From a virus, in IMG/VR virus record IMGVR_UViG_3300031720_000002, positions 2,667-66,666 of that record: DNA of 64,000 bases. One strand, given 5' to 3'. The first letter of the stretch is position 1, and the number at the start of each line of letters is the position of its first letter. The notes under the pieces were generated by a model that was given only the letters and a program-made list of their open reading frames with translations, did no database searches and was not told where the DNA came from. Position numbers and translations under genes: made by a program. This document shows positions 564 through 47,851 of the stretch, piece by piece.

Positions 564-779
564 ATGATGAAACGACAGACACCACTTCACGAGATTCTAC
601 GTCAGCGGCGTGTTGACCTTGTCATCACGCAGCAAAAGCTCGCCGCTAAAATGGGCGTCGCGCAGAGCATGGTCTCTGATTGGGAATCCGGACGTGTTTC
701 CCCTTACTACGATAACATTGTGAAGTGGACGACAGCACTCGGCATCACACTCGTCCCTACCCTCACGGAGTGGCTGTGA
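564..779 (+). CDS. XRE-family HTH transcriptional regulator
   Basis: ITQQKLAAKMGVAQSMVSDWESG HTH signature; GGAG RBS at 556-559; TGGTAGGGT extended -10 at about 490. Confidence 0.85.
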   Translation: MMKRQTPLHEILRQRRVDLVITQQKLAAKMGVAQSMVSDWESGRVSPYYDNIVKWTTALGITLVPTLTEWL

Positions 780-1840
780 CACGTATCGCACTCATCACCA
801 CGACCATCAACGTCCCAACGGTGCTCACCCAGTGGGCCAAGTCAGGAATGATTAGCGATGACATCATCATCGTCGCAGGTGACCAAAAGTCTCCACACCG
901 TGAGATTGTTGACCTACTCGCCGCAATCGAGCGCGAGACTGGCGTCGTTGGGATATACAGCCCACCAAAGATGCAGGACCTCTGGGCTATCTCGGAGAAG
1001 ATCGGCTGGAACTGCATTCAGCGTCGTAACATCGCGCTACTCGAGGCGATGATGTATAACCCCCAGTACATCCTCACGATCGATGACGACAACGCGCCTA
1101 CATCAGGCTCCCAGGTCACACAGCTCGTTGACATCATGGAGCACCGTATCACGGGCTATGAGTCCGCGCACAGTCAGGCCATCAGCACGAACACAGGGTG
1201 GTACAACCCGGGACGACAGTGCCTCACTGATCATCTTCGTCCCGTCGTCCACCGCGGGTTCCCGTTGTCCCAACGGTTCGTCGCGCCGCTCATCACGCAC
1301 ACGAAGATGGCGCCCGTTGGTGTCGCTGCGATGTTGTGGACGGGTGAGCCCGACATCGACGCGGTGGAACGCATCGCGGTGCGACCCAATGTGACGCGCA
1401 TCGGTCGTCCGAACTTCGTTCTCACTCCCGGCACGTGGGCGCCATTCAACACGCAGGCGACGATGGTTCGCGGTGACCTCGCTCCCGCACTGTTCATGTG
1501 GCCCCACGTCGGTCGGTACGACGACATCTGGGCTAGCTATGTCTACCGCAAGGTCGCAGACAAGCGTGGCTACGGTGCGTATTACGGTCACCCCGCGGTG
1601 CACCAGGACCGCAACGAGCACGACCTCGTGAAGGATCTCGAGCAGGAGATCTTCGGAATGCGGTGGAACGAGTCGATCATCCGCCTCATCCAGGACGTGA
1701 ACCTCGATCCCGACGCCGACGTGATTAGCGACGTCACTCGAATCTTCGCCGATCTCGTCATGCTCGCGCATCCTCTTCCCGACGAGACGAAGTACGCGCT
1801 TGGCGCATGGATCGATGATGTGGAGGCCATTAATGGGTAA
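776..1840 (+). CDS. GT75/RGP-STELLO-like protein (NDP-sugar pyranose/furanose mutase-like)
   Basis: Motifs ITTTIN, AGDQKSP, RRNIA, TIDDDN, HRGFP, GEPDIDA, PFNTQ, GRYDDIW, HQDRNEHDLVKDL; GTG start overlaps the HTH stop (GTGA). Confidence 0.75.
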   Translation: MTRIALITTTINVPTVLTQWAKSGMISDDIIIVAGDQKSPHREIVDLLAAIERETGVVGIYSPPKMQDLWAISEKIGWNCIQRRNIALLEAMMYNPQYILTIDDDNAPTSGSQVTQLVDIMEHRITGYESAHSQAISTNTGWYNPGRQCLTDHLRPVVHRGFPLSQRFVAPLITHTKMAPVGVAAMLWTGEPDIDAVERIAVRPNVTRIGRPNFVLTPGTWAPFNTQATMVRGDLAPALFMWPHVGRYDDIWASYVYRKVADKRGYGAYYGHPAVHQDRNEHDLVKDLEQEIFGMRWNESIIRLIQDVNLDPDADVISDVTRIFADLVMLAHPLPDETKYALGAWIDDVEAING

Positions 1841-3152
1841 GATCGTCGGCTACGGTAAGCTCGGGCGCTCGATGCCCCTCACGCTGGAGAAGTGCGCGAA
1901 TCTTGGTGGCGACGTCGAGATGGTCGCAGTGGTGAAGGAGCTCGCACTTCGCCATCCCGACGACACGTTCCTCTTGCTCGGTCGCAACACTGGCGAGATT
2001 CCTACGAAGGTCGGAATGCCGGCGAACGTCGTCAATCCGTGGGCCGAGTGGGGTTGGTCAGAGCGTCTTCTCCGTGAGGGAACACCGATCAGGAAGAAGT
2101 ACGCGATCAACCCGAATGGCTCGAACCTCGCGGTGCAGGGCCACATCGAGATGCGTGAACTCTTCCGTGACATCACCGAAAAGACGTTCGTCAAGTGTGA
2201 TGGTCACGTCTTCTGGGTCGGTCAGCACGGCTCAACGAACACGCCAGTGCCAAAGATCGAGGACATGTCCATCCTCACGAAGCCGCACGACTGGTGCGCG
2301 TACTACGCGTCGCACATTCTCCTGGGCGTCAACGCTTGGCGTGATGCACACCCAGACAAGGACGTCGTCTGGCTCAACGCTGACGCCCGTAACAAGCACA
2401 AGATGCGGGATCTCAAGCACAAGCTCATCAATCCCATCCTCACCCAGTACACCTTCTCCCACAACCTCAAGCACGAGCAGTACGACGGCACGCCGCCCAT
2501 CACTGGCGCTGTGCACAACATCTACTCGCGCCTCGAGGTCAATGGCCTCGCACCCGGGACGCCGTTTGGTGACCTCATTACGTACAACCCATCGCCCAAC
2601 TTCCGCAAGTACCGCTTCGGCATGTTCATCAACGAGGCACGCGCCATTGGCGTGAAGGCGGGCATGGATCGTCTCTCTGTGATGAAACAGTGGGTGCTGC
2701 CGCTCATCGAGAACAACAGCGAGGAGAACCCCCACTGGATTCATGGCACGTGGAGTCCCCAGTCGCAGTCAGAGCTTGGCTTCGAGATCAATCCCGCGCC
2801 GTGGGATCAGTATTATCCGATGCTCAACGACACGTTGTGCACGTTCACGACGCCGTCCAGTGGCTCCCACTGGGCGACTGCAAAGCCGTGGGAAGCGTTC
2901 GCTGGTGGAACGATCTGCTTCTTCCACCCAGACTACGACAAGCAGGACAACATCCTGCATGACGCGCATCCCAACCTCCGTGAGTGGCTGCGCGTGAAGA
3001 CTCCCAAGGATCTCAAGACACGTGTCGCTGCCGTGACGGCCAACGCGTCCACTGCGAGCTGGCTCATTCAGCGACAGCGTGAGCACTTTGTGCGAGCCAT
3101 TGAGGATAAGCGGTATCTCAAGACCATCGAGGAGATGATCTGGAATGGGTAA
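1833..3152 (+). CDS. GT-B-like glycosyltransferase, putative DNA-modifying
   Basis: N-terminal GYGKLGRS...GGDVE; C-terminal YYPML...TTPSSGSHWATAKPWEAFAGGTICFFHPDYD donor-binding-like motif; GGAGG RBS; lies between sugar enzymes and a dNTPase. Confidence 0.6.
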   Translation: MGKIVGYGKLGRSMPLTLEKCANLGGDVEMVAVVKELALRHPDDTFLLLGRNTGEIPTKVGMPANVVNPWAEWGWSERLLREGTPIRKKYAINPNGSNLAVQGHIEMRELFRDITEKTFVKCDGHVFWVGQHGSTNTPVPKIEDMSILTKPHDWCAYYASHILLGVNAWRDAHPDKDVVWLNADARNKHKMRDLKHKLINPILTQYTFSHNLKHEQYDGTPPITGAVHNIYSRLEVNGLAPGTPFGDLITYNPSPNFRKYRFGMFINEARAIGVKAGMDRLSVMKQWVLPLIENNSEENPHWIHGTWSPQSQSELGFEINPAPWDQYYPMLNDTLCTFTTPSSGSHWATAKPWEAFAGGTICFFHPDYDKQDNILHDAHPNLREWLRVKTPKDLKTRVAAVTANASTASWLIQRQREHFVRAIEDKRYLKTIEEMIWNG

Positions 3153-4065
3153 GCGAGCACTCGTGACCGGCGCTGCCGGGTTCGTCGGACGACACATGAC
3201 GAACCACCTTCACAGTCAGGGATGGGACGTCGCACGGTGTGACATCGTTGGTCCAATGGCGTGGACCATGCACGACTTCAACGATGTGACGCGGTGGAAC
3301 GACATCCGCTACGACATCGTCGTCCACTGCGCGGCGGTGGGTGCACATCGCGCCGCCATCGATGGCCAGCCTCACACGTTCGCGAAGAACATGCGACTCG
3401 ACGCCGCGCTCTTCGACTGGGCGATCAAGACGAAGCAGCGTCGCGTCATCTACATCTCGTCCAGTGCGGCATACCCCATCGAGTATCAGAACATCCTCGG
3501 CGGCGATCACGAGATGCGCCTCGAGGAGGACATGATCGACCTCTGGCACCCACGTCTCGCTGATGGCACGTACGGCGTCACGAAGCTGACCGGAGAGCAC
3601 CTCGCTAGAGCCGCTCGAGCCGCCGGCGTACCAGTTACCGTCGTGCGACCGTTCAGTGGCTACGGTGAGGATCAGGGTCCCGATTGGCCGTTCGGAGCGT
3701 TCGTCCAGCGGATCGGCGCCGGCTTCGGTCAGTCGTCCACGAATCCGTTCGTGATCTGGGGCAGCATGAAGCAGCGACGTGACTGGATCCACATCGACGA
3801 CGTCATCCATGGCATGCTCGCCATCGCGGAGTCCAAGACGGAGGATCCCGTCAATCTGTGCACGGGCGTACCCACGTCCATGAAGGACCTCGTCATGATG
3901 ATGGCGAACGTGATGGGCTACGACGAGTTTCACCTCACCGAAGACCGCGACGCTCCGATGGGCGTGTTGAACCGTGTCGGAAGTCCTGACCGATTCTTCG
4001 AGTACTATGAACCAAAGATCACGCTCGAAGAGGGCGTGTACCGAGCGTTGTGGGGCCACAAGTGA
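3145..4065 (+). CDS. NAD-dependent NDP-sugar epimerase/dehydratase (extended SDR)
   Basis: TGAAGFVG Rossmann motif, ISSSAAY, catalytic YGVTK, RDWIHIDD. Confidence 0.92.
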   Translation: MGKRALVTGAAGFVGRHMTNHLHSQGWDVARCDIVGPMAWTMHDFNDVTRWNDIRYDIVVHCAAVGAHRAAIDGQPHTFAKNMRLDAALFDWAIKTKQRRVIYISSSAAYPIEYQNILGGDHEMRLEEDMIDLWHPRLADGTYGVTKLTGEHLARAARAAGVPVTVVRPFSGYGEDQGPDWPFGAFVQRIGAGFGQSSTNPFVIWGSMKQRRDWIHIDDVIHGMLAIAESKTEDPVNLCTGVPTSMKDLVMMMANVMGYDEFHLTEDRDAPMGVLNRVGSPDRFFEYYEPKITLEEGVYRALWGHK

Positions 4066-4067
4066 CG

Positions 4068-4433
4068 ATGGACCGTCTCGAAGAGATGCTCAAGCTGCAG
4101 GACGAACTGCAGGAGCGATACACGGGCACTTCGCCAATCGACCTCGTCGGCGAGGGTCGCAAGGACTACGTGAGGACGATGGTCCTCGCTTGCACGGATG
4201 AACTTCACGAGGCTCTCCGCGAGGTCCCGTGGAAGCCGTGGTCCGGCAACACGCTGTGGGACAAGGACAGCGAGATCAACTTCAAGCTCGAACTCGTCGA
4301 CGCGTTCCACTTCTTCATGAACCTCATGCTCGTCTCGGGCATGACGGCGGACGAGCTCTTCACTGAGTACCTTCGCAAGAACGGGATCAACCACAGTCGC
4401 ATCGATGGCGGCTACTCCAGCCCCACTGGGTGA
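4068..4433 (+). CDS. Dimeric all-alpha dUTPase/dCTPase (MazG superfamily)
   Basis: DELHEALREVPWKPW, ELVDAFHFFMNL, YLRKNGINHSR; alternative GTG start at 4062. Confidence 0.85.
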   Translation: MDRLEEMLKLQDELQERYTGTSPIDLVGEGRKDYVRTMVLACTDELHEALREVPWKPWSGNTLWDKDSEINFKLELVDAFHFFMNLMLVSGMTADELFTEYLRKNGINHSRIDGGYSSPTG

Positions 4434-4454
4434 CAACCCGATACTATCGATCCC

Positions 4455-6101
4455 ATGACTCATCGCTTTGTCGACGCGCTCGGATTCGCGGGCGGATTCA
4501 CCCTGGGTATGGTCCAAGCCGGATTCGAGCTCGTCGGCAAGCGTGAGATGAAGGGTGGTTTCGGTGTCGCCAACTGCGAGGCTAATCGCCATCTGCTGGG
4601 ACAGGGATGGAAGGCTGAGTCAGTTGATCCGACCCAGTGGAGCGTCGTGGACGCTGACGCCGTCACGGGCAACCCACCTTGCTCTGGTTTCTCAGGAATG
4701 TCAGCGAAGCACTTCCGAGGAGCCAACTCTCCCATCAATCACTGCATGTGGGCGTTCGTCGACTACGTCGCCCGCGTGAAGCCGCAGATCGCGGCGTTCG
4801 AGTCAGTGCAACTTGCCTTCACGCGTGAGGACGGCCTCGCCCTCATGCGAGCCCTCCGAACGAAACTGGAGGAAGCGACAGGTGACAGGTGGACGCTCTT
4901 TCACGTTCTACACAACGCATACAGCCTCGGCGGAGTCGCGCATCGCCGACGTTATTTTTGGGTCGCAACTCGCATCCCGTTCGGCATCGAGTGGCCTCAT
5001 CGAGACAAGCTGCCTGTGTTGGACGACGCTATCGGCGACTTGGAACATCAGCCCCAAGGCTGGGCTGCCGCACCTCTTGTGGGCAATCCTTCCTGGTGGG
5101 CCGCACCTCGCACGCGTGACGACCTTCACGTGGACGGGCACGTGTCAGTGCGTGCTCCGCTCGTTCAGCGAGTGGTTGACCTTCTGCAAGGCGTGGAGTG
5201 GAACGGCGGCGAGCACCTTGCTCGACTTGCGCGCCGCTACTATGACACGTACGGACAGTTGCCCGCTTCATGGGCAGCCACGCAGGACAAGGTCGTCGCA
5301 AACGACTTCAACCTCGGATACAACACACCCGTCAGATGGAAGGGCGACGAGCCAGCGCGTGTTATCACGGGAGCAGGTCCGATCGTGGCGTTCCATCCAC
5401 GCCTGCAGCGACCGCTGACGCACCGTGAGGTCGCTCGCGTGATGGGCTTCCCGGACACGTGGCTCATCGACCCGATCAAGAACACACCGGGTCTCGTGAT
5501 GACGTGGGGCAAGGGCATCACGGTCGACTGTGGTCGCTGGATCGGCTCGTGGATCTACGATGCACTGGATGGAGAACCGGGCAAGTACCACGGCGAACGC
5601 ATCGGTGATCGCGAGTTTCTCATCGATACCACATACGCATGGCACTTGAACCTGGTACAGTCGACATTGACGCTCAGAAGATTCCGTAAACTCATTGGAG
5701 GTAACATCATGACCGAGCCTGTTGCGGCTCCCGAGGTTCCCGTCACCGAGGGTGACGAGGCTCCCGTCGCCGAGGCCAGCACGTCGCGCGCCTCGAGTGG
5801 TCGTCCGCGTCCGCAGGCCACGCTCGAGCAGGACGCGAAGGTTCTCGAGTACCTGTCGGCGGAGGAGAACGCCGACGGCAAGACGAAGGCGGAGATCGGC
5901 ACCGCCCTCGAGCTGGCGACGAACAAGGTCTACCTCTCGCTGTGGCGCCTCGGCACGCGTGAGGGCAAGATCCACCGGACGGGCTCTGGCGCGTCCGCGA
6001 AGTGGGTGGCCGGCTCCGCTCCGGAGGTCGCTGATGACGCTGCCGCTCCTGCGGCCGACGTCGAGCAGCCCGCTCCCGCGGAGGAGCACGTCGCCATCTG
6101 A
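4455..6101 (+). CDS. Divergent C5-cytosine DNA methyltransferase homolog with in-frame C-terminal wHTH-like extension
   Basis: Motif IV GNPPCSGFS, VI FESV, VIII HRRRYF, IX LTHREVARVMGFPD, X WGKGI; leaderless start after TACTAT at 4442-4447. Confidence 0.8.
   Translation: MTHRFVDALGFAGGFTLGMVQAGFELVGKREMKGGFGVANCEANRHLLGQGWKAESVDPTQWSVVDADAVTGNPPCSGFSGMSAKHFRGANSPINHCMWAFVDYVARVKPQIAAFESVQLAFTREDGLALMRALRTKLEEATGDRWTLFHVLHNAYSLGGVAHRRRYFWVATRIPFGIEWPHRDKLPVLDDAIGDLEHQPQGWAAAPLVGNPSWWAAPRTRDDLHVDGHVSVRAPLVQRVVDLLQGVEWNGGEHLARLARRYYDTYGQLPASWAATQDKVVANDFNLGYNTPVRWKGDEPARVITGAGPIVAFHPRLQRPLTHREVARVMGFPDTWLIDPIKNTPGLVMTWGKGITVDCGRWIGSWIYDALDGEPGKYHGERIGDREFLIDTTYAWHLNLVQSTLTLRRFRKLIGGNIMTEPVAAPEVPVTEGDEAPVAEASTSRASSGRPRPQATLEQDAKVLEYLSAEENADGKTKAEIGTALELATNKVYLSLWRLGTREGKIHRTGSGASAKWVAGSAPEVADDAAAPAADVEQPAPAEEHVAI
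5709..6101 (+). CDS. Small acidic wHTH-like DNA-binding protein (internal in-frame start)
   Basis: GGAGG at 5697-5701 then ATG 5709; TGGTACAGT extended -10 at about 5653; GRPRP and KVLEYL...KTKAEIGTAL...KVYLSLWRL...GKI. Confidence 0.6.
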   Translation: MTEPVAAPEVPVTEGDEAPVAEASTSRASSGRPRPQATLEQDAKVLEYLSAEENADGKTKAEIGTALELATNKVYLSLWRLGTREGKIHRTGSGASAKWVAGSAPEVADDAAAPAADVEQPAPAEEHVAI

Positions 6102-11032: not shown

Positions 11033-11396
11033 CGCAGTGGGCAAGCCGCCTTCCCCCGCGGCGCTGAAGATTCCCGCTCCTGACTGGTCACAGGCTGCAT
11101 GCTTCCGCGCGAAAGACCCCGACATTTTCTTTGACGATGACGCAGAGCAACGCGATCTCACCACACCGCAGGTTCACGCATACTGTAGCCGATGCCCAAT
11201 TCTCCAAGCGTGCCTCAACTGGGCTCTCGATTCGAATCAGAAGCACGGGATGTGGGGCGATACAACGCCACGCGCCCGGGACAAGCTCAAGCGTGTGGTG
11301 ACTCGCGTGAGCTGCCCGGGCTGCATGAGTCAGGACATCTTCGAGATGCCCGACGAGGAGATCTGCGTAAGCTGCGGACTCAGCTGGAAGATCTAG
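11010..11396 (+). CDS. whiB: WhiB-family transcription factor with C-terminal Zn ribbon
   Basis: WSQAAC...DPDIFF...YCSRCPILQAC...HGMWGDTT; extra CPGC and CVSC. Confidence 0.9.
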   Translation: MRNSSSGSAVGKPPSPAALKIPAPDWSQAACFRAKDPDIFFDDDAEQRDLTTPQVHAYCSRCPILQACLNWALDSNQKHGMWGDTTPRARDKLKRVVTRVSCPGCMSQDIFEMPDEEICVSCGLSWKI

Positions 11397-14961: not shown

Positions 14962-15492
14962 TCACGTAACACCGAAGGCGTAGGCCCACTGAGTCGCAGT
15001 GCCAACATCTGTGACGATGAGAGCGCGAGGACGCGTCGAAGCAGCGTCATGCGTCACGGTTCCGGCATTCGCAGTCAGCGTCAAGAGAAGGTCCATGACG
15101 ACGTCTGCGCCAGTCGCGTTCTTCACATAGAGGAAGCCGTTTGCCATCGTCTGCGAGCCATTCGCACCCGCATAGTATCGGTAGAGTGCACCGATCTGTG
15201 TGCCACCAGTGGTGTTCTTGAAGAGACCGAAGTCACCCAGTCGTCCAGTGGCATCGGCAAACATGCCGCCTACGATTTCAATGCGATACGCACGGCCAGT
15301 CTTGAACGTGCACGAAGGCAGCGTGAGGACCGCGGTGATCGTGCTGATCGCCGATGAACCCGCCAACTGCGACGCGACCTGTGGTCCTAGGATCACAGTA
15401 TCCCACAGTGTGTTCACCGCGTCAGTGATGGGCTTACCCCAGTTGTCCCAATCGAGCTTGGACCCCTTGGGTCCGATCTGCACAATGGGCAT
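14962..15492 (-). CDS. Minor tail protein
   Basis: Beta-rich Thr/Gly protein at the end of the tail operon. Confidence 0.6.
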   Translation of the reverse strand: MPIVQIGPKGSKLDWDNWGKPITDAVNTLWDTVILGPQVASQLAGSSAISTITAVLTLPSCTFKTGRAYRIEIVGGMFADATGRLGDFGLFKNTTGGTQIGALYRYYAGANGSQTMANGFLYVKNATGADVVMDLLLTLTANAGTVTHDAASTRPRALIVTDVGTATQWAYAFGVT

Positions 15493-31145: not shown

Positions 31146-33554
31146 CTAGAACTTGTCGAGATCCGCGAGCTCTGACTCGAGCGTCGCGTACTTCAGCTTG
31201 GGCTTCTTCGTCGCTGCAGAGATGCCGCACGCCATGTCGAGCGCAGCGAGTTCATCGTCCAGACTCATCGTCGTCCGGTCCACGACACCAGCCGCGACGA
31301 GCGAGACCTGCTTACCCTGCGCCAGTGCCGTGCCCACGCGCGGGATCGGGAAGCCCGGAACATTCACGGCTAGAAGTGCAACCATCCGAAGATTGCCACT
31401 AATGCGACGCCAGTCACCAGACAAAGCAGAAGCACGGAGAGCATGCATGTGCTCACTGGAAGTGCCGGGCCGTACGGCGCCCGCAATCCAAATGCCATGC
31501 TCGTCAGTTCCAGCCGTGACATCCGCGACTGCCGTGCCAGTGTCGCCGTAGTGATCGATCGCCCGGGCGAGAGTGACGCCACGAGTTGGCGCGTGCGACG
31601 TGCCGAGCGTGATCTGACCGACCGCGACACTGTGACCCTCCGCAGTGAGCACCTCGCCAGTCGTGAAGTACGAGTAGTCCGGCTCAGCAGGCGGCGTCAC
31701 GCAAGTGTCAGCGAACCCAGTGTGGCATGTTCCCCAACATGCAGCGTGGCCGAACACGCGGCCGTCCTCGGTGACGGTGACCGGTGTCGGGCCATACAGC
31801 TCAGGCTTGCCAAACCACTCGAGCGGAGCGGTAGCAGGGATAGCTGCGGCAACCATCGACTCTGTCTGGAGCGTGAACGCTGGTGCGATCTGGCCGGCAT
31901 CGGTGAAGTGTTGCGCCATGTGGTCGTATGCGTACTTCAGCTGCGTCGTCGTCAGTCCGAACGCGCGTCCCGAGTTGATCGAGCCGATGTGCTTCGCGCA
32001 GGCGACGAGCGATGCGCGGCCAGGCTGACCGTCCTCGTCGATCTCGTGGTGCAGGAAGCGGCACTGCTGACGAGAGACGACATCGTCGATGCCATCCACG
32101 TACGCGAATGCAGCAGCAGCGACGAGACCGTCCAGTTCACCTTCACCCAGTCGCAGCTCGTGCTCGATCGATTTCCACGGCGCATCAGTGACGGAAGCGA
32201 CGACAGCGGAACTCTCGCCCTTCTTCGTCAGCTTGATGGCAGCCTCAACCAACGCAGGGAACGCAACCAGCGTCGCACCACGGAGACGGCCCTTGTGGAA
32301 GATCGTCTTGGTCGGCTTCGCAAAGGGGTCGTTGTCCTCGCCCAACGCGAACTCAAGCTCGACGTCAGCGTCGGTCACCTGATCCGGGTCGACAGAGACA
32401 CCGCCCGCGAAGCCATCGCGGACCTGACGAAACGCACGGAGACCGTCCGGATCGTTGATGTTGAATCGACCCTTGCCCATGATGACTCGCGGGTTCTCAG
32501 GCGAGCGCCACATCTTATCGATGCGACCAGCAGTCACGCTGCCCTTGTGCTCGCCGAGGTTCGACTGCGCCCACTGGAACGGGTGGATGATCGATTCCGT
32601 GTCCTCCCAGGTGAGTGACCCGCCCGAGAACATCCGCTGATCGCCAGTGTCCGTGTCCTCGACGACGAGTGGCCCTTCCCAGCCGCCATCGTACTCGCCG
32701 AGCTCGGCTTCGAGATCCACAGCCGCGTCAGCCGTCACGACATCCACCTCCAGATTCTTCTTGTCGCTGCTGCTTTCCTTGCCACCGGCGGCGACATACG
32801 CAACAGTGTCAGTACTCGCAGTGCCATCATACAACGGAAAGTCAGTCACCTCCCCGCCGAAGGCAACACGCACATGGTCGAAGCGGATGGGACCTTCACG
32901 GTCCTTCAGCTTCTTCACCGTGCCTGAGTCTGACGTGTAGGCGAGCGTAATGTGCGGAATCCACGGCTCGTACTGTGGCGGGTAGTAGTCGCCCAAGTAG
33001 TCACTCGCAATGTTGTCCGCCATCATGTGCGGCTTCTTGAGTTCGTCACCCGAAACGAGAAGGACGACGCACGGCTCCTTCTCTTGGTCTTGGTTGAATG
33101 CTGCCACGCCGAAGCCATCTGCATCAATGATGGGAACGTTCCTCGACATATGACGCACAGACTCGATGATGTCGTTCCGCATCATGGGCGTGATCTTCGC
33201 TGCCTCGCCCAAGTAGCAAAGCGTGAGGTGAAGATCCTCGTCGTCCTCACCACCATCGACGACAAGACGGTTCATGTCGTCCTCACTGGGCAGCAAGGCG
33301 ATCATCGCGCCCGTCTGCTCATCAGCTTCCTCAGCCGCTTCAGACGCAGCGTCCGCAGTGAGGCCGAGTGCAGTGTAATCCCCATTGAGAACACTCTCAA
33401 CCTCAGCGTCGGTAAGTTCACGAGAACCAGACGTGTCTGGTGCCTCGTAGTCACCCTGTTCGTACTGAGCGAATGTGACACCCTGATCCGCCAAGCCAAC
33501 GGGCACGAAAGCCATGTCTGAGCCATTCGCCCAGGGAGGAGTCCATTTTGCCAT
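31146..33554 (-). CDS. 2H phosphoesterase (Acb1/2'-5' RNA ligase-like) fused to capsid maturation protease
   Basis: HLTLCYLG and PHITLAY 2H motifs; GGVSVD...LRGATLVAFPA protease-like; GRVFGHAACW...SGDWR...VNVPGFP C-terminal domain. Confidence 0.8.
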   Translation of the reverse strand: MAKWTPPWANGSDMAFVPVGLADQGVTFAQYEQGDYEAPDTSGSRELTDAEVESVLNGDYTALGLTADAASEAAEEADEQTGAMIALLPSEDDMNRLVVDGGEDDEDLHLTLCYLGEAAKITPMMRNDIIESVRHMSRNVPIIDADGFGVAAFNQDQEKEPCVVLLVSGDELKKPHMMADNIASDYLGDYYPPQYEPWIPHITLAYTSDSGTVKKLKDREGPIRFDHVRVAFGGEVTDFPLYDGTASTDTVAYVAAGGKESSSDKKNLEVDVVTADAAVDLEAELGEYDGGWEGPLVVEDTDTGDQRMFSGGSLTWEDTESIIHPFQWAQSNLGEHKGSVTAGRIDKMWRSPENPRVIMGKGRFNINDPDGLRAFRQVRDGFAGGVSVDPDQVTDADVELEFALGEDNDPFAKPTKTIFHKGRLRGATLVAFPALVEAAIKLTKKGESSAVVASVTDAPWKSIEHELRLGEGELDGLVAAAAFAYVDGIDDVVSRQQCRFLHHEIDEDGQPGRASLVACAKHIGSINSGRAFGLTTTQLKYAYDHMAQHFTDAGQIAPAFTLQTESMVAAAIPATAPLEWFGKPELYGPTPVTVTEDGRVFGHAACWGTCHTGFADTCVTPPAEPDYSYFTTGEVLTAEGHSVAVGQITLGTSHAPTRGVTLARAIDHYGDTGTAVADVTAGTDEHGIWIAGAVRPGTSSEHMHALRASALSGDWRRISGNLRMVALLAVNVPGFPIPRVGTALAQGKQVSLVAAGVVDRTTMSLDDELAALDMACGISAATKKPKLKYATLESELADLDKF

Positions 33555-42386: not shown

Positions 42387-42435
42387 CGTTCCTACTCCTT
42401 CGTCTTTCGTCGAGTTTCCTTGCCCTTATGAGATA

Positions 42436-42464
42436 ATCTTAACAGGACCTTGAGTGAATGTCAA
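42436..42464 (-). promoter_or_regulatory. Repeated early promoter P1
   Basis: TTGACA-N17 (ending CCTGT)-TAAGAT-TATCTC. Confidence 0.85.
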
Positions 42465-42846: not shown

Positions 42847-42886
42847 GATCGTCTCCTAAGTCATCTGTCGTGTTTCCGTTGAGATA

Positions 42887-42915
42887 ATTCTAACAGGATC
42901 CTGTGCGCTGTGCAA
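42887..42915 (-). promoter_or_regulatory. Repeated early promoter P2
   Basis: TTGCAC-N17 (ending CCTGT)-TAGAAT-TATCTC. Confidence 0.85.
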
Positions 42916-43747: not shown

Positions 43748-43778
43748 CGTACGTCCTCCATCAATCCGTCCTGAGATT

Positions 43779-43807
43779 ATCATATCAGGATTCGTGATTA
43801 CGTGCAA
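43779..43807 (-). promoter_or_regulatory. Repeated early promoter P3
   Basis: TTGCAC-N17 (ending CCTGA)-TATGAT-AATCTC. Confidence 0.88.
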
Positions 43808-43808
43808 C

Positions 43809-43830
43809 AAAAAAGCGGCCCGAAGGCCGC
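43809..43830 (-). terminator. Intrinsic terminator abutting P3
   Basis: Minus strand GCGGCC-TTCG-GGCCGC-TTTTTT. Confidence 0.8.
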
Positions 43831-44327: not shown

Positions 44328-44366
44328 CGTCCTCTGTCCCTTCGTCTGATTCCCCGTGCTGAGATA

Positions 44367-44395
44367 ATCATATCAGGAGGATCGTCGCAGTGCAA
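44367..44395 (-). promoter_or_regulatory. Repeated early promoter P4
   Basis: TTGCAC-N17 (ending CCTGA)-TATGAT-TATCTC. Confidence 0.88.
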
Positions 44396-44410
44396 CAACT
44401 TCCTGTGCGA

Positions 44411-44602: not shown

Positions 44603-44636
44603 TGTGTCCTCCTAAGTATAACTTCCCGATGATACT

Positions 44637-44665
44637 AATATATCAGGAACTTAAGAACGATGCAA
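44637..44665 (-). promoter_or_regulatory. Repeated early promoter P5
   Basis: TTGCAT-N17 (ending CCTGA)-TATATT. Confidence 0.8.
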
Positions 44666-45006: not shown

Positions 45007-45033
45007 CGTCTGTCGCTATCGCCTTACCTGTTT

Positions 45034-45062
45034 ATCATATCAGGATTAATCACATCATGCAA
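45034..45062 (-). promoter_or_regulatory. Repeated early promoter P6
   Basis: TTGCAT-N17 (ending CCTGA)-TATGAT. Confidence 0.85.
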
Positions 45063-45348
45063 CAAATCCTCCCAGGGTCATCAGCGAACGGGAGGTGACA
45101 CTGTAGCCGGGGTGTGGGTGAACGCGGTAACCCGCCTCATCCCAGACCTCCTGGGTCCAGCGCTGAACGAGCTTGTCTACGAAGTGCTGACGAGTGGTGC
45201 AACCACGCGTGACAATGCGCTCTTGCTTGCAGAGTGCCTTGAGTTCCGCCACCCTCATCGTGTCGAGCTTATCGAGGAAGGCGGGGGCGAGTTGATCGGC
45301 GAGCTTCATCGCGTCCGTGATGGCCTTGCCGCTATTGTACTCCGTCAT
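45055..45348 (-). CDS. SAP/HeH-like small protein, leaderless
   Basis: LDTMRVAELKALCKQERI...TTRQHFVDKL; ATG 6 nt after the P7 -10. Confidence 0.55.
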   Translation of the reverse strand: MTEYNSGKAITDAMKLADQLAPAFLDKLDTMRVAELKALCKQERIVTRGCTTRQHFVDKLVQRWTQEVWDEAGYRVHPHPGYSVTSRSLMTLGGFVA

Positions 45349-45354
45349 GCGTTA

Positions 45355-45383
45355 ATCATAACAAGATTAATCCCATCGTGCAA
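45355..45383 (-). promoter_or_regulatory. Repeated early promoter P7
   Basis: TTGCAC-N17 (ending CTTGT)-TATGAT. Confidence 0.85.
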
Positions 45384-45397
45384 CAACTCTCGCACAC

Positions 45398-45434
45398 AAA
45401 GATGGGACCCATCGGGAGGGTGATGGGTCCCACC
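45398..45434 (-). terminator. Intrinsic terminator after tRNA/ncRNA
   Basis: Minus strand GGTGGGACCCATC-8nt-GATGGGTCCCATC-TTT. Confidence 0.8.
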
Positions 45435-45436
45435 TT

Positions 45437-45660
45437 GTCACCAGCTTCACAGGCTCCCTCATCAGTCCCTCGCAGCGATCACGACGGAAAGAGGTCCAAG
45501 CGCCTCCGCCTAGCTTTGCATCCCACTAGCCTGTCGTTCTCAGGTCTGCCGGACTGTGGAGGCCCTAGGCCTGTTGATCCACTTTTGCCGGGTAGTAAGA
45601 TGACACATGGCCCGAGTTCAATGAAGTGTAGCTGTGATCTCATTGAAAGTGAAGTAAGCC
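45437..45660 (-). ncRNA. Candidate structured ncRNA (about 220 nt), family unknown
   Basis: No credible ORF; nested stems CTTCAC/GTGAAG, TTCAATGA/TCATTGAA, CGGG/CCCG, GATCA/TGATC, GCCTCC/GGAGGC, CCTG/CAGG, CTAG/CTAG; between tRNA-Met and a terminator. Confidence 0.55.
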
Positions 45661-45683
45661 ACACAAACGCACCGAGCCATGCG

Positions 45684-45759
45684 TAGCGGCGGGCGGATTT
45701 GAACCACCGATCTCAGACTTATGAGGCCTGCGAGGACGACCGAGCTCCTCTACACCGCT
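45684..45759 (-). tRNA. tRNA-Met(CAT), initiator-like, no encoded CCA
   Basis: AGCGGTG/CGCCGCT acceptor, GAGG/CCTC D stem (A11-U24), CAGGC-CTCATAA-GTCTG, GGTGG-TTCAAAT-CCGCC. Confidence 0.92.
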
Positions 45760-45851
45760 ATGGCACGCAACGCGCGGAGAGCGAGAACGCTACATCTCAG
45801 CCAGAAAGGATTAGAAGGAAGCGTCCTCATGGCCGCGCGTTGCTTGCAAGT

Positions 45852-46094
45852 CTACTGTACCAGGTCTGCGTCACACGTGGTAGGCGACTCTGCCACACGG
45901 CGATGCATGAATGCGTGCATGTCGTGTCCCATCCACATCATGATCTCAGTGACTGCGCCGATGGTCGCACGATCTAGCTTATCAGCTCGCTCTGCTGGCT
46001 CGTCGCCATTCTCGTACGAACACTCCCAGTGGTGTGTCTCGTCGTTGAAGACCCAGAACCACGCTTCGTCATCAATGATCAGCACGAATTTCAC
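45852..46094 (-). CDS. Hypothetical protein
   Basis: AAGGAG RBS. Confidence 0.5.
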   Translation of the reverse strand: MKFVLIIDDEAWFWVFNDETHHWECSYENGDEPAERADKLDRATIGAVTEIMMWMGHDMHAFMHRRVAESPTTCDADLVQ

Positions 46095-47415: not shown

Positions 47416-47634
47416 TCACTCCTCAACGCCGATCGCGATCATCAGGTTCTGGTCAGTGACGTGCTGGACCCAGATGTGATCGATCTGCAGGAAGCAAGCG
47501 ACCCACGCGATCGCGTCGTCCATGTCGCCAGTGGGAACCATGAAGCTGAACAGCTCGCCATCGTGCGTCAGCTGGAAGCCCGTCTCGCCCGTGCGCTCGA
47601 GCTTCGTAACGTTCGTCTTCTGTCCGTTCGTCAT
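47416..47634 (-). CDS. Hypothetical protein, leaderless
   Basis: ATG 6 nt after the P8 -10. Confidence 0.6.
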   Translation of the reverse strand: MTNGQKTNVTKLERTGETGFQLTHDGELFSFMVPTGDMDDAIAWVACFLQIDHIWVQHVTDQNLMIAIGVEE

Positions 47635-47640
47635 GCGTTT

Positions 47641-47669
47641 ATCATATCAGGACTAATGAGGATGTGCAA
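47641..47669 (-). promoter_or_regulatory. Repeated early promoter P8
   Basis: TTGCAC-N17 (ending CCTGA)-TATGAT. Confidence 0.88.
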
Positions 47670-47851
47670 CCCGATGTGACCACTTCCAGAAATACCACGG
47701 CCAAGTGAGTGAGGCGTAGATGATCCACGCGATGGCAAGGCCACCTAGGACCGCCGCACCCATCAGGCCGACGAAGAACCACGTGATGACCTCTTGAAGG
47801 CTAAGGCTGCCTCCCTGCTCCATTTGCTCCATACGACCATCATACCAAGAA

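Follow-up and report, generated by a model that had tools for sequence, protein, structure and literature searches.

A probable structured RNA domain with an invariant 26-nucleotide core beside a tRNA gene of an uncultivated virus and in unrelated soil phages

The DNA analysed here (hereafter the window) is a stretch of 64,000 nucleotides (nt) from an uncultivated virus, positions 2,667 to 66,666 of IMG/VR record IMGVR_UViG_3300031720_000002; on its minus strand, 224 nt (45437-45660) lie between a transfer RNA (tRNA) gene with anticodon CAU and an intrinsic terminator. These 224 nt very probably hold an RNA domain whose structure is conserved. The part kept among phages is an 84-nt three-way junction (domain A, 45602-45519), built around an invariant 26-nt core and recovered in three further viral loci (L178, L180 and L200), together with a separate 3′ block (module B, 45513-45444). 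On the best reading, domain A is a new structured RNA module carried on the tRNA transcript, and the trailer of the tRNA is a mosaic of RNA modules. Combined with a trans-acting binding role, which taken by itself we propose only tentatively, this reading has in our estimate a probability of roughly 0.5.

Architecture of domain A

Domain A (45519-45602, minus strand) consists of four helices: the closing helix P1 (45602-45593 paired with 45528-45519), the short helix P2 (CCGG, 45591-45588 paired with 45552-45549), the bipartite hairpin P3 (45582-45556) and the hairpin P4 (CCUG-AGAACGA-CAGG, 45544-45530), which carries the 7-nt loop AGAACGA. The invariant core, GUCCGGCAGACCUGAGAACGACAGGC (45529-45554), runs through J3/2, the 3′ strand of P2, J2/4, P4 with its loop and J4/1, so that P4 is the second half of the core. 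Across the four members P1 ranges from 6 to 14 base pairs (bp); its 5′ strand stops one base before a CCNG word, which pairs with core positions 3-6 to form P2, and its 3′ strand follows directly after the core. A 5-nt, mostly A-rich strand between the 5′ strand of P2 and P3 forms an internal loop, and P3, which has a bulge of 5-6 nt on its 5′ side only, is followed by one base and then by the core.

The sequences of P1 and P3 vary among the members with pairing kept, the helix sequences being unrelated among lineages, and BLAST could not align the four members outside the 26-mer. The core is identical in the window, L178 and L179/L180 and matches at 24 of 26 positions in L200. When contigs from four public sequencing runs were compared with the region, they yielded a near-identical strain (X2) and two further carriers of the core (X3 and X5), in which ~35 nt from the middle of the 224-nt stretch lie between unlike flanks.

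Comparative evidence for the fold

The four sequences (window, L178, L180 and L200) were aligned with MAFFT without structural information and came out in register for P1, P2, the outer part of P3 and P4. Over the 27 pairs of the consensus structure, 90.3% of the alignment cells were paired, compared with 73.3 ± 3.2% in shuffled alignments (0 of 500 as high) and with 28-47% once the 3′ partners had been slid by 1-3 columns. Both sides had changed in 13 of the 27 pairs, a number again reached by none of 500 shuffles, and the covariation score was 0.556 as against 0.208 in the shuffles. Run without guidance, RNAalifold returned the same four helices with 25 pairs, 13 of them compensatory, and for the window's 88-nt segment both the minimum free energy (MFE) structure and the centroid coincided with the consensus fold. 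Taken as single sequences, the domains of L180 and L200 had folding z scores of −4.03 and −4.54, respectively.

Individual substitutions follow the same pattern. The change of core position G5 to A in L200 is matched by a C-to-U change in its P2 partner (pair 25-75, CG to UA), and in strain X2 the sole change within the domain, at 45597, turns a U.G pair of P1 into C-G; a second nearby change, at 45603, is unpaired and lies one base outside P1, and the strain has none at 45428-45596. In all four members the P1 strands paired best with their own partner (−12.9, −12.9, −24.0 and −29.9 kcal/mol; mean of non-cognate pairings, −9.2 kcal/mol), and each of these duplexes abuts P2 and the core. Seven of the cells are G.U pairs, and the fold is thus specific to the minus, gene-sense strand.

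Distribution among phages

Two other viral records, L178 (record G002) and L179/L180 (G001), emerged from an exact scan with a 22-nt part of the core. A pattern scan with the 3′ half of the core returned 43 stretches, the real ones being L178, L179 and L200 (G004), of which L200 was new; the other 40, mostly from one phage family, were rejected as chance 16-mers. The corresponding 5′-half scan gave four stretches, two of which have only the 16-mer in common. A covariance model of domain A run over 69 sources (881 kb) scored the members at 75-106 bits, the next match reaching 19.8 bits; this match and another of 17.1 bits, both in L134, were not accepted, being GC-rich stretches on the strand opposite to the terminase gene of that locus. 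On five whole records the model found exactly one copy in four and none in G003, the complete genome of L003. The window has the core with P1, the CCNG word facing core positions 3-6, the bipartite hairpin and the P4 with AGAACGA loop that we propose as features of the family, and scores 82 bits with model R1, a score that is not independent because the model was built from these four sequences.

No relatives of the window's terminase were found in G001, G002 or G004, and these three genomes have few or no proteins in common with the window, those few being replication or tail proteins. G002 is itself a relative of G004, and in both records domain A lies 3′ of the same gene, for which Pfam gave no match. 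The terminase and protein comparisons thus place domain A in three lineages and show it to be dispensable within one. A terminase-profile scan of metagenomes, in which 80 loci were kept of 425 relatives, found neither domain A nor module B in any of the 80. Among cultured phages the core was not found at E≤10, save for a 21-nt near-match in Streptomyces phage Wentworth, which we take as chance because it is intergenic, lies on the strand opposite to its flanking genes and lacks the half of the core that forms the hairpin; nor did the long non-coding stretches of L200 or L180 match any cultured phage. Neither half of the core is printed in any searchable paper.

In L178, L180 and L200 domain A has the same orientation as its flanking genes. 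A coding explanation for the core was rejected, the frame in L180 having an in-frame TAA and no later start, and both core changes in L200 being non-synonymous.

Several observations weigh against reading domain A as a conserved RNA with a binding role. The window's domain on its own had a z score of −1.47 (17 of 200 shuffles as good) and that of L178 one of −1.82 (11 of 200), and the comparison comprises four full members and two partial contigs. The slid-partner control is generous because the structure was derived from the same four sequences. In L178 the register of P1 is lost in its outer half, and the second core change in L200, A10 to U, lacks a compensating partner. The closest relatives of the window (L002, L003 and L004, with L003 represented by the whole of G003) do without the domain, which is therefore dispensable, and no protein co-occurs with it in all four phages. 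The binding or decoy role is proposed by analogy. Finally, a sharp invariant 26-mer within unalignable flanks would also be expected of a DNA recognition site.

This last point could be extended to an explanation at the DNA level, with the fold incidental; the 26-mer would then be the core of an attachment site, a CRISPR protospacer or a mimic of a CRISPR repeat, the target of a nuclease or recombinase, or a linker at which phage modules recombine. The perfect 26-bp identity with sharp edges and unalignable flanks in unrelated phages, as well as the patchy presence among close relatives, would fit such a site. We nevertheless consider it very unlikely: the 22-nt core part has no copy on either strand in 185,579 prokaryote species genomes (one genome each), so that it is not an attB site nor a CRISPR repeat or spacer of any represented host; no integrase or nuclease gene is adjacent; and the covarying helices at fixed distances on both sides, with their G.U pairs (A.C on the other strand), would be left unexplained.

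The 224-nt stretch as a whole

A preliminary description of the sequence had pictured 45437-45660 as one multi-branched RNA, closed by CTTCAC pairing with GTGAAG and containing an 8-bp hairpin, a CGGG/CCCG hairpin and a long arm capped by three hairpins. Every string it quoted is present on the minus strand: CTTCAC (45653-45648), GTGAAG (45450-45445), TTCAATGA (45647-45640), TCATTGAA (45624-45617), CGGG/CCCG, GATCA...TGATC, GGCCTAGGGCCTCC/GGAGGCGCTTGGACC, GTC/GAC, CCTG/CAGG and CTAG/CTAG. Its flanks are likewise as described, tRNA-Met(CAU) occupying 45759-45683 and a hairpin that resembles a terminator, with its T-run, 45434-45393, and the stretch indeed has no convincing open reading frame (ORF): the frames of 61 amino acids (aa; minus strand) and 102 aa (plus strand) match no PHROG, and neither is kept with its start codon in the homologous RNAs. 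These observations are thus literally right, yet alone they do not rise above chance. The 224-nt MFE structure does include the closing helix and the 8-bp hairpin, but its energy of −74.9 kcal/mol compares with −73.1 ± 4.4 kcal/mol in shuffles (z=−0.40; 67 of 200 as good).

Comparison with other phages gave the closing helix no support, since L200 has GUGAAG with no CUUCAC within 1.2 kb upstream and L003 has a changed 3′ arm without a matching 5′ arm. The 5′ third of the stretch is conserved nowhere, its 5′ 60 nt, with the 8-bp hairpin, matching nothing in the other fetched phage records and recurring only in the near-identical strain X2, and both the CGGG/CCCG hairpin and the long arm clash with the covarying helices. 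Among the helices listed, CCTG/CAGG alone belongs to the conserved structure. A single 224-nt RNA of this design is hence hardly credible; the covariation supports the 84-nt domain A and not a single 224-nt fold. The preliminary reading correctly placed an unrecognised structured RNA beside the tRNA on the minus strand, and was wrong about its shape and extent.

Module B

Module B (45444-45513, minus strand) comprises a GGAGG/CCUCU hairpin (45507-45490), a second hairpin, UCCGUCGUG/UGCGAGGGA (45488-45466), and CUGAUGAGGGAGCCUGUGAAGC (45465-45444). Its conservation is seen in L003, which is 86.7% identical over 60 nt (45513-45454), a higher value than for the terminase gene (only 77.7%), and whose second hairpin differs from that of the window by one exchange of U-A to C-G. 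In L200 module B is represented by its start (AAGACAAGUCCUG...GGUGGAGGCGC) and its end (CUGAGUGGAAGCCUGUGAAGC), which occur in the same order around a large insertion with a 12-bp closing helix, and domain A and module B thus recur together, also in the same order, in an unrelated phage. Module B was not found in L178 or L180. Four pattern scans returned the contig of L003 as the sole true match, the other 8 and 33 stretches matching the pattern alone.

The second hairpin is followed directly on its 3′ side by a CUGAUGA box (45465-45459), which is kept in L003 and reads CUGAGUG in L200. With CUGAUGA right after this hairpin and a UU step ahead of it, module B resembles the layout of stem I, cleavage site and first box in Hammerhead_II ribozymes (RF02276). 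The alignment to that family (45521-45448) reached 12.4 bits, compared with a gathering cut-off of 37, at E=5.6, and the family gave no match in a 601-nt search. The GAAA box of the family is missing, the aligned box reading CAAAG with A in place of G12; stem II is missing too, there being no upstream complement to GGGAGCC, only GGC in the window and GGU in L003 before the stem III-like hairpin; and a G.U pair takes the place of A15.1-U16.1. Reading CUGAUGA as part of a kink-turn was rejected, the opposite strand having UU where GA is required.

Equivalent loci in other phages

The terminase relatives of the window, L002 (84%), L003 (83%) and L004 (74%), all have tRNA(CAU) at the same place; the tRNA of the window is 90% identical to those of L002 and L003 (L003, 89.9%). 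What follows the tRNA on its 3′ side differs: a terminator only in L004, ~150 nt of unrelated sequence in L002, and in L003 a 141-nt spacer, tRNA(CUA) and then ~200 nt. Only L003 among the three has sequence in common with the 224-nt stretch, namely 60 nt. Its tRNA(CUA) (14976-15048), which lies between tRNA-Met and module B, is of the amber-suppressor type and is labelled Pyl by ARAGORN; its acceptor stem, read by eye, has two U.U mismatches. A short block, TGCGTCA..GGGTC.CT...GGGAC/GGCGAC, is common to the tRNA trailer of L002 (5931-6050) and the inter-tRNA spacer of L003 (14835-14975) and absent from the window, a third block which suggests that the tRNA locus exchanges several small non-coding modules.

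In the phages with domain A the settings differ as well. In L178 the domain starts within ~10 nt of the 3′ end of tRNA-Met. Directly 3′ of it lies a tRNA-like element (795-965, minus strand), which ARAGORN does not call. Its D and T arms are normal, an insert of ~60 nt enlarges its anticodon loop and one of ~40 nt its variable region, and its T arm equals that of the L003 tRNA(CUA) over 21 nt. In L180 domain A lies midway in ~560 nt that follow a promoter-like site, TTGACA-17-TAGTGT, and in L200 it lies within ~1.3 kb without a convincing gene, the parts of module B being ~670 nt further on. There is no tRNA near domain A in either L180 or L200. A T-arm-like sequence, GAGGUUCGACUCCUC, within a GUCGC...GCGAC helix that ARAGORN does not call, was noted 3′ of the long non-coding stretch of L200 (~11265-11330, minus strand).

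Relation to known RNA families

At gathering score, Rfam found no significant family in the window beyond tRNA, and at E≤10 it gave sub-threshold noise in 45300-45900 and 45430-45615. At E≤1 the matches in L180, L181 and L200 were the tRNA of L181 and two sub-threshold matches to microRNA models in L200 only. As to a tRNA, transfer-messenger RNA or tRNA-like element, ARAGORN called only the tRNA at 45683-45759 in this region, and the Rfam tRNA model gave no second match at E≤10. As far as the available libraries show, domain A is a new structured RNA. A catalogue of candidate structured RNAs (csRNAs) mined from IMG/VR holds 8,495 covariation-supported motifs of 29-151 nt, tRNA-like ones included (PMC10690425); it shares with our case its source, uncultivated viral contigs, and the kind of object, and domain A could already be among its entries. 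The sequence GGGAGCCUGUGAA may resemble the L1 stalk of 23S ribosomal RNA.

GOLLD and ROOL are structured non-coding RNAs of phages and prophages that often lie beside tRNAs, and the preliminary description had drawn the parallel with GOLLD. GOLLD has a conserved 3′ region and a variable 5′ region, sometimes with tRNAs in its linker, and one GOLLD RNA was first found downstream of a tRNA-Met (PMC12286853). Here too a tRNA(CAU) lies 80 nt upstream, two conserved modules occur at variable spacing, and tRNA or tRNA-like inserts are present in relatives. The RNA of the window, however, is ~224 nt long and not >500, its conserved unit is an 84-nt junction without predicted pseudoknots, and the sequences are unrelated; neither GOLLD (RF01998) nor ROOL (RF03087) matched the window at gathering score or at E≤10, or L180, L181 and L200 at E≤1. 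The parallel accordingly stands for the context, a phage with a tRNA neighbour, and not for membership of the family.

The 224 nt might still be the smallest of a set of modular, sometimes very large, GOLLD/ROOL-like RNAs of soil actinophage-like viruses. In favour of this are the succession of domain A and module B ~670 nt apart within the ~1.3 kb of L200, the position of domain A in the ~560 nt of L180, the order of tRNA-Met, domain A and the tRNA-like element with large insertions in L178, the tRNA(CUA) just before module B in L003, and the organization of GOLLD itself. We regard it as unlikely, given the lack of any GOLLD or ROOL match, the absence of module B from L178 and L180, and the ORFs of up to 123 aa in L200, the long stretches being single transcripts by assumption. 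Such a large modular RNA would be compatible both with a binding role and with a ribozyme. More specifically, domain A and module B could be the conserved ends of a new modular class of phage RNA, from ~0.2 kb to >1 kb with tRNA or tRNA-like inserts, an actinophage-type counterpart of GOLLD and ROOL in which the 26-nt junction would serve as the active centre, whether for catalysis or as a pocket that receives a conserved host component such as a tRNA or the ribosome; we rate this idea as unlikely.

Theta ribozymes, which resemble those of the hepatitis delta virus (HDV), are reported to lie just 3′ of phage tRNAs, including suppressor tRNAs, and to act on tRNA 3′ ends (PMC10879173). A similar arrangement is seen where domain A abuts the 3′ end of the L178 tRNA-Met and where module B lies 3′ of the L003 tRNA(CUA), and differs from that of the window, with its 80-nt gap between tRNA and domain A, and of the two members without a nearby tRNA. 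In domain A, P1 joins the first strand to the last and P2 the second to the middle one, a nested arrangement in place of the HDV-like double pseudoknot, and no HDV-family model matched the window region at E≤10; the nested covarying topology excludes an HDV-like fold.

The main rival to the binding role sees in domain A or module B a small ribozyme, self-cleaving or otherwise processing, by which the transcript with the tRNA would be cut. A three-way junction in which the junction strands, the internal loop (N-GU facing the A-rich strand) and the hairpin loop are all invariant shows a conservation pattern typical of small ribozymes; domain A stands beside tRNAs in two of the four phages, abutting one in L178; module B combines a hairpin with CUGAUGA and a weak Hammerhead_II alignment; and phages, as the theta ribozymes show, use ribozymes at tRNA 3′ ends. 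This rival is nonetheless quite improbable, as no ribozyme family is significant, Hammerhead_II remaining far below its cut-off with the GAAA box (G12) and stem II missing and L200 lacking CUGAUGA; the fold is nested; and the tRNA is 80 nt from domain A in the window, with none nearby in L180 and L200.

A possible role for the tRNA-linked RNA

The reading that we prefer, a structured module carried on the tRNA transcript, would run as follows. The unit is ordered as a possible promoter, a leader hairpin, tRNA(CAU), the trailer and the terminator; the RNA would be made together with the tRNA and freed as RNase P and 3′-end enzymes excise the tRNA, after which P1 and the terminator hairpin would protect the freed RNA. 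Co-transcription with the tRNA and release by tRNA processing, which the preliminary description had also proposed, is plausible from the layout because the scans found no promoter-like site between tRNA and terminator and because the fold of L178 begins ~10 nt from the tRNA. Variable helices combined with invariant junction strands, an invariant internal loop and an invariant P4 loop have the pattern of a recognition or catalytic centre. The junction and loops might accordingly form a specific surface on which a conserved partner of host or phage origin, be it protein or RNA, docks, and the RNA would act in trans as a binding or decoy RNA and not as a regulator of a neighbouring gene; this role is suggested by analogy, and we hold it with less than even confidence. 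A trans-acting role is favoured by the downstream content, which is different in every member, and by the terminator that directly follows.

Alternatively, domain A could be a cis-acting switch, a riboswitch or attenuator setting read-through of the terminator (45434-45393) into the downstream small genes, for which a junction-type, aptamer-like fold upstream of an intrinsic terminator would be suitable. The terminator directly after the RNA and the promoter-like motif belonging to the next gene argue against control in cis; what lies downstream differs in all four phages (the terminator, the tRNA-like element, ~300 nt of non-coding sequence and ~670 nt, respectively), so that no downstream gene is kept across the members; and P1 is held apart from the terminator by the 70 nt of module B, a block with a conservation of its own, so that no expression platform overlaps P1. 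Such a switch is highly improbable.

The non-coding RNAs that phages carry beside tRNA genes, such as GOLLD, ROOL and the theta ribozymes, count among the most poorly understood elements of phage biology. The motif added to them here is compact (84 nt), covaries clearly and has a striking 26-nt invariant centre common to unrelated soil phages; it is small enough for direct probing, cleavage, pull-down and structural study. Should the larger relatives be single RNAs, domain A would also open the way to large modular phage RNAs of a new family. The tRNA locus of these phages further appears as a swap-shop for RNA modules flanked by strong hairpins.

Genome setting and layout of the tRNA unit

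The window makes up most of a 66.7-kb record of an uncultivated virus with a G+C content of ~59%, and encodes a terminase, a C5 methylase, a family-A DNA polymerase, a primase-polymerase and further phage genes. The closest cultured terminases, at 32-37% identity, belong to Streptomyces and Arthrobacter phages. From 50.1 kb downward the genes lie on the minus strand, and the tRNA(CAU) unit is found among small genes, each with a repeated promoter-like motif before it, that fill the ~5 kb separating the terminase from the structural genes. The tRNA itself (45683-45759, minus strand) is called Met by ARAGORN and matches Rfam RF00005 at 52 bits.

Immediately before the leader of the tRNA, GACCTGGTACAGT (45854-45866, minus strand) may contain the −10 region (TACAGT) of the unit. 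Related words, GACCTGGTACGAT and GACCTGATAGAAT, occur at the equivalent place in L003 and L002, whether coding there or not; a consensus promoter scan did not call the site at 45854-45866. A long leader hairpin (45767-45843, minus strand) ends 7 nt before the tRNA and is highly stable (MFE −42.1 kcal/mol, z=−4.99; 0 of 200 shuffles as good). Stable long hairpins were noted 3-8 nt before the first tRNA in all five phages considered, namely the window, L003 (14705-14754), L002 (5649-5700), L004 (14455-14533) and L178 (1159-1204, minus strand), the last from the unrelated G002; their sequences are unrelated and their z scores range from −3.8 to −5.0, those outside the window from −3.8 to −4.7 (0 of 200 shuffles each). 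The leader hairpin may help to process or protect the tRNA leader, or may act as a U-less terminator for the genes upstream.

Between the tRNA and domain A, the spacer hairpin TTCAATGA-N15-TCATTGAA (45617-45647, minus strand) is a perfect 8-bp inverted repeat present only in this phage, with no counterpart in any fetched locus. The intrinsic terminator at the other end (45393-45434, minus strand), identified by a terminator scan, has a 13-bp stem followed by UUUGUGUG, and the fold that includes its hairpin has a z score of −2.64. Directly 3′ of it, at 45386-45341, lies one copy of a repeated promoter-like motif, which would serve the next gene.

The repeated motif, TTGTTGCAC-~17 nt-TATGAT(A/T)A, was noted on the minus strand upstream of at least eight small minus-strand genes, often just past a terminator, at 42429-42464, 42880-42915, 43765-43810, 44353-44398, 44630-44665, 45020-45065, 45341-45386 and 47627-47672. 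It looks like a phage-specific promoter family for many tiny genes with very short or no leaders, and was not found in front of the tRNA.

Two further observations concern genes elsewhere in the window. An 802-aa ORF (31146-33554, minus strand) gave borderline matches to anti-CBASS Acb1 and 2H phosphoesterases (PF23474, 27.1 bits with a cut-off of 27; PF13563, 25.8 bits) and may hold a cyclic-nucleotide or RNA-end phosphodiesterase domain within a large structural protein. On the plus strand, a cluster at 725-6101 encodes an RGP-family glycosyltransferase-like protein, an NAD-dependent sugar epimerase/dehydratase and the C5 cytosine DNA methylase, and may serve DNA or surface-sugar modification.

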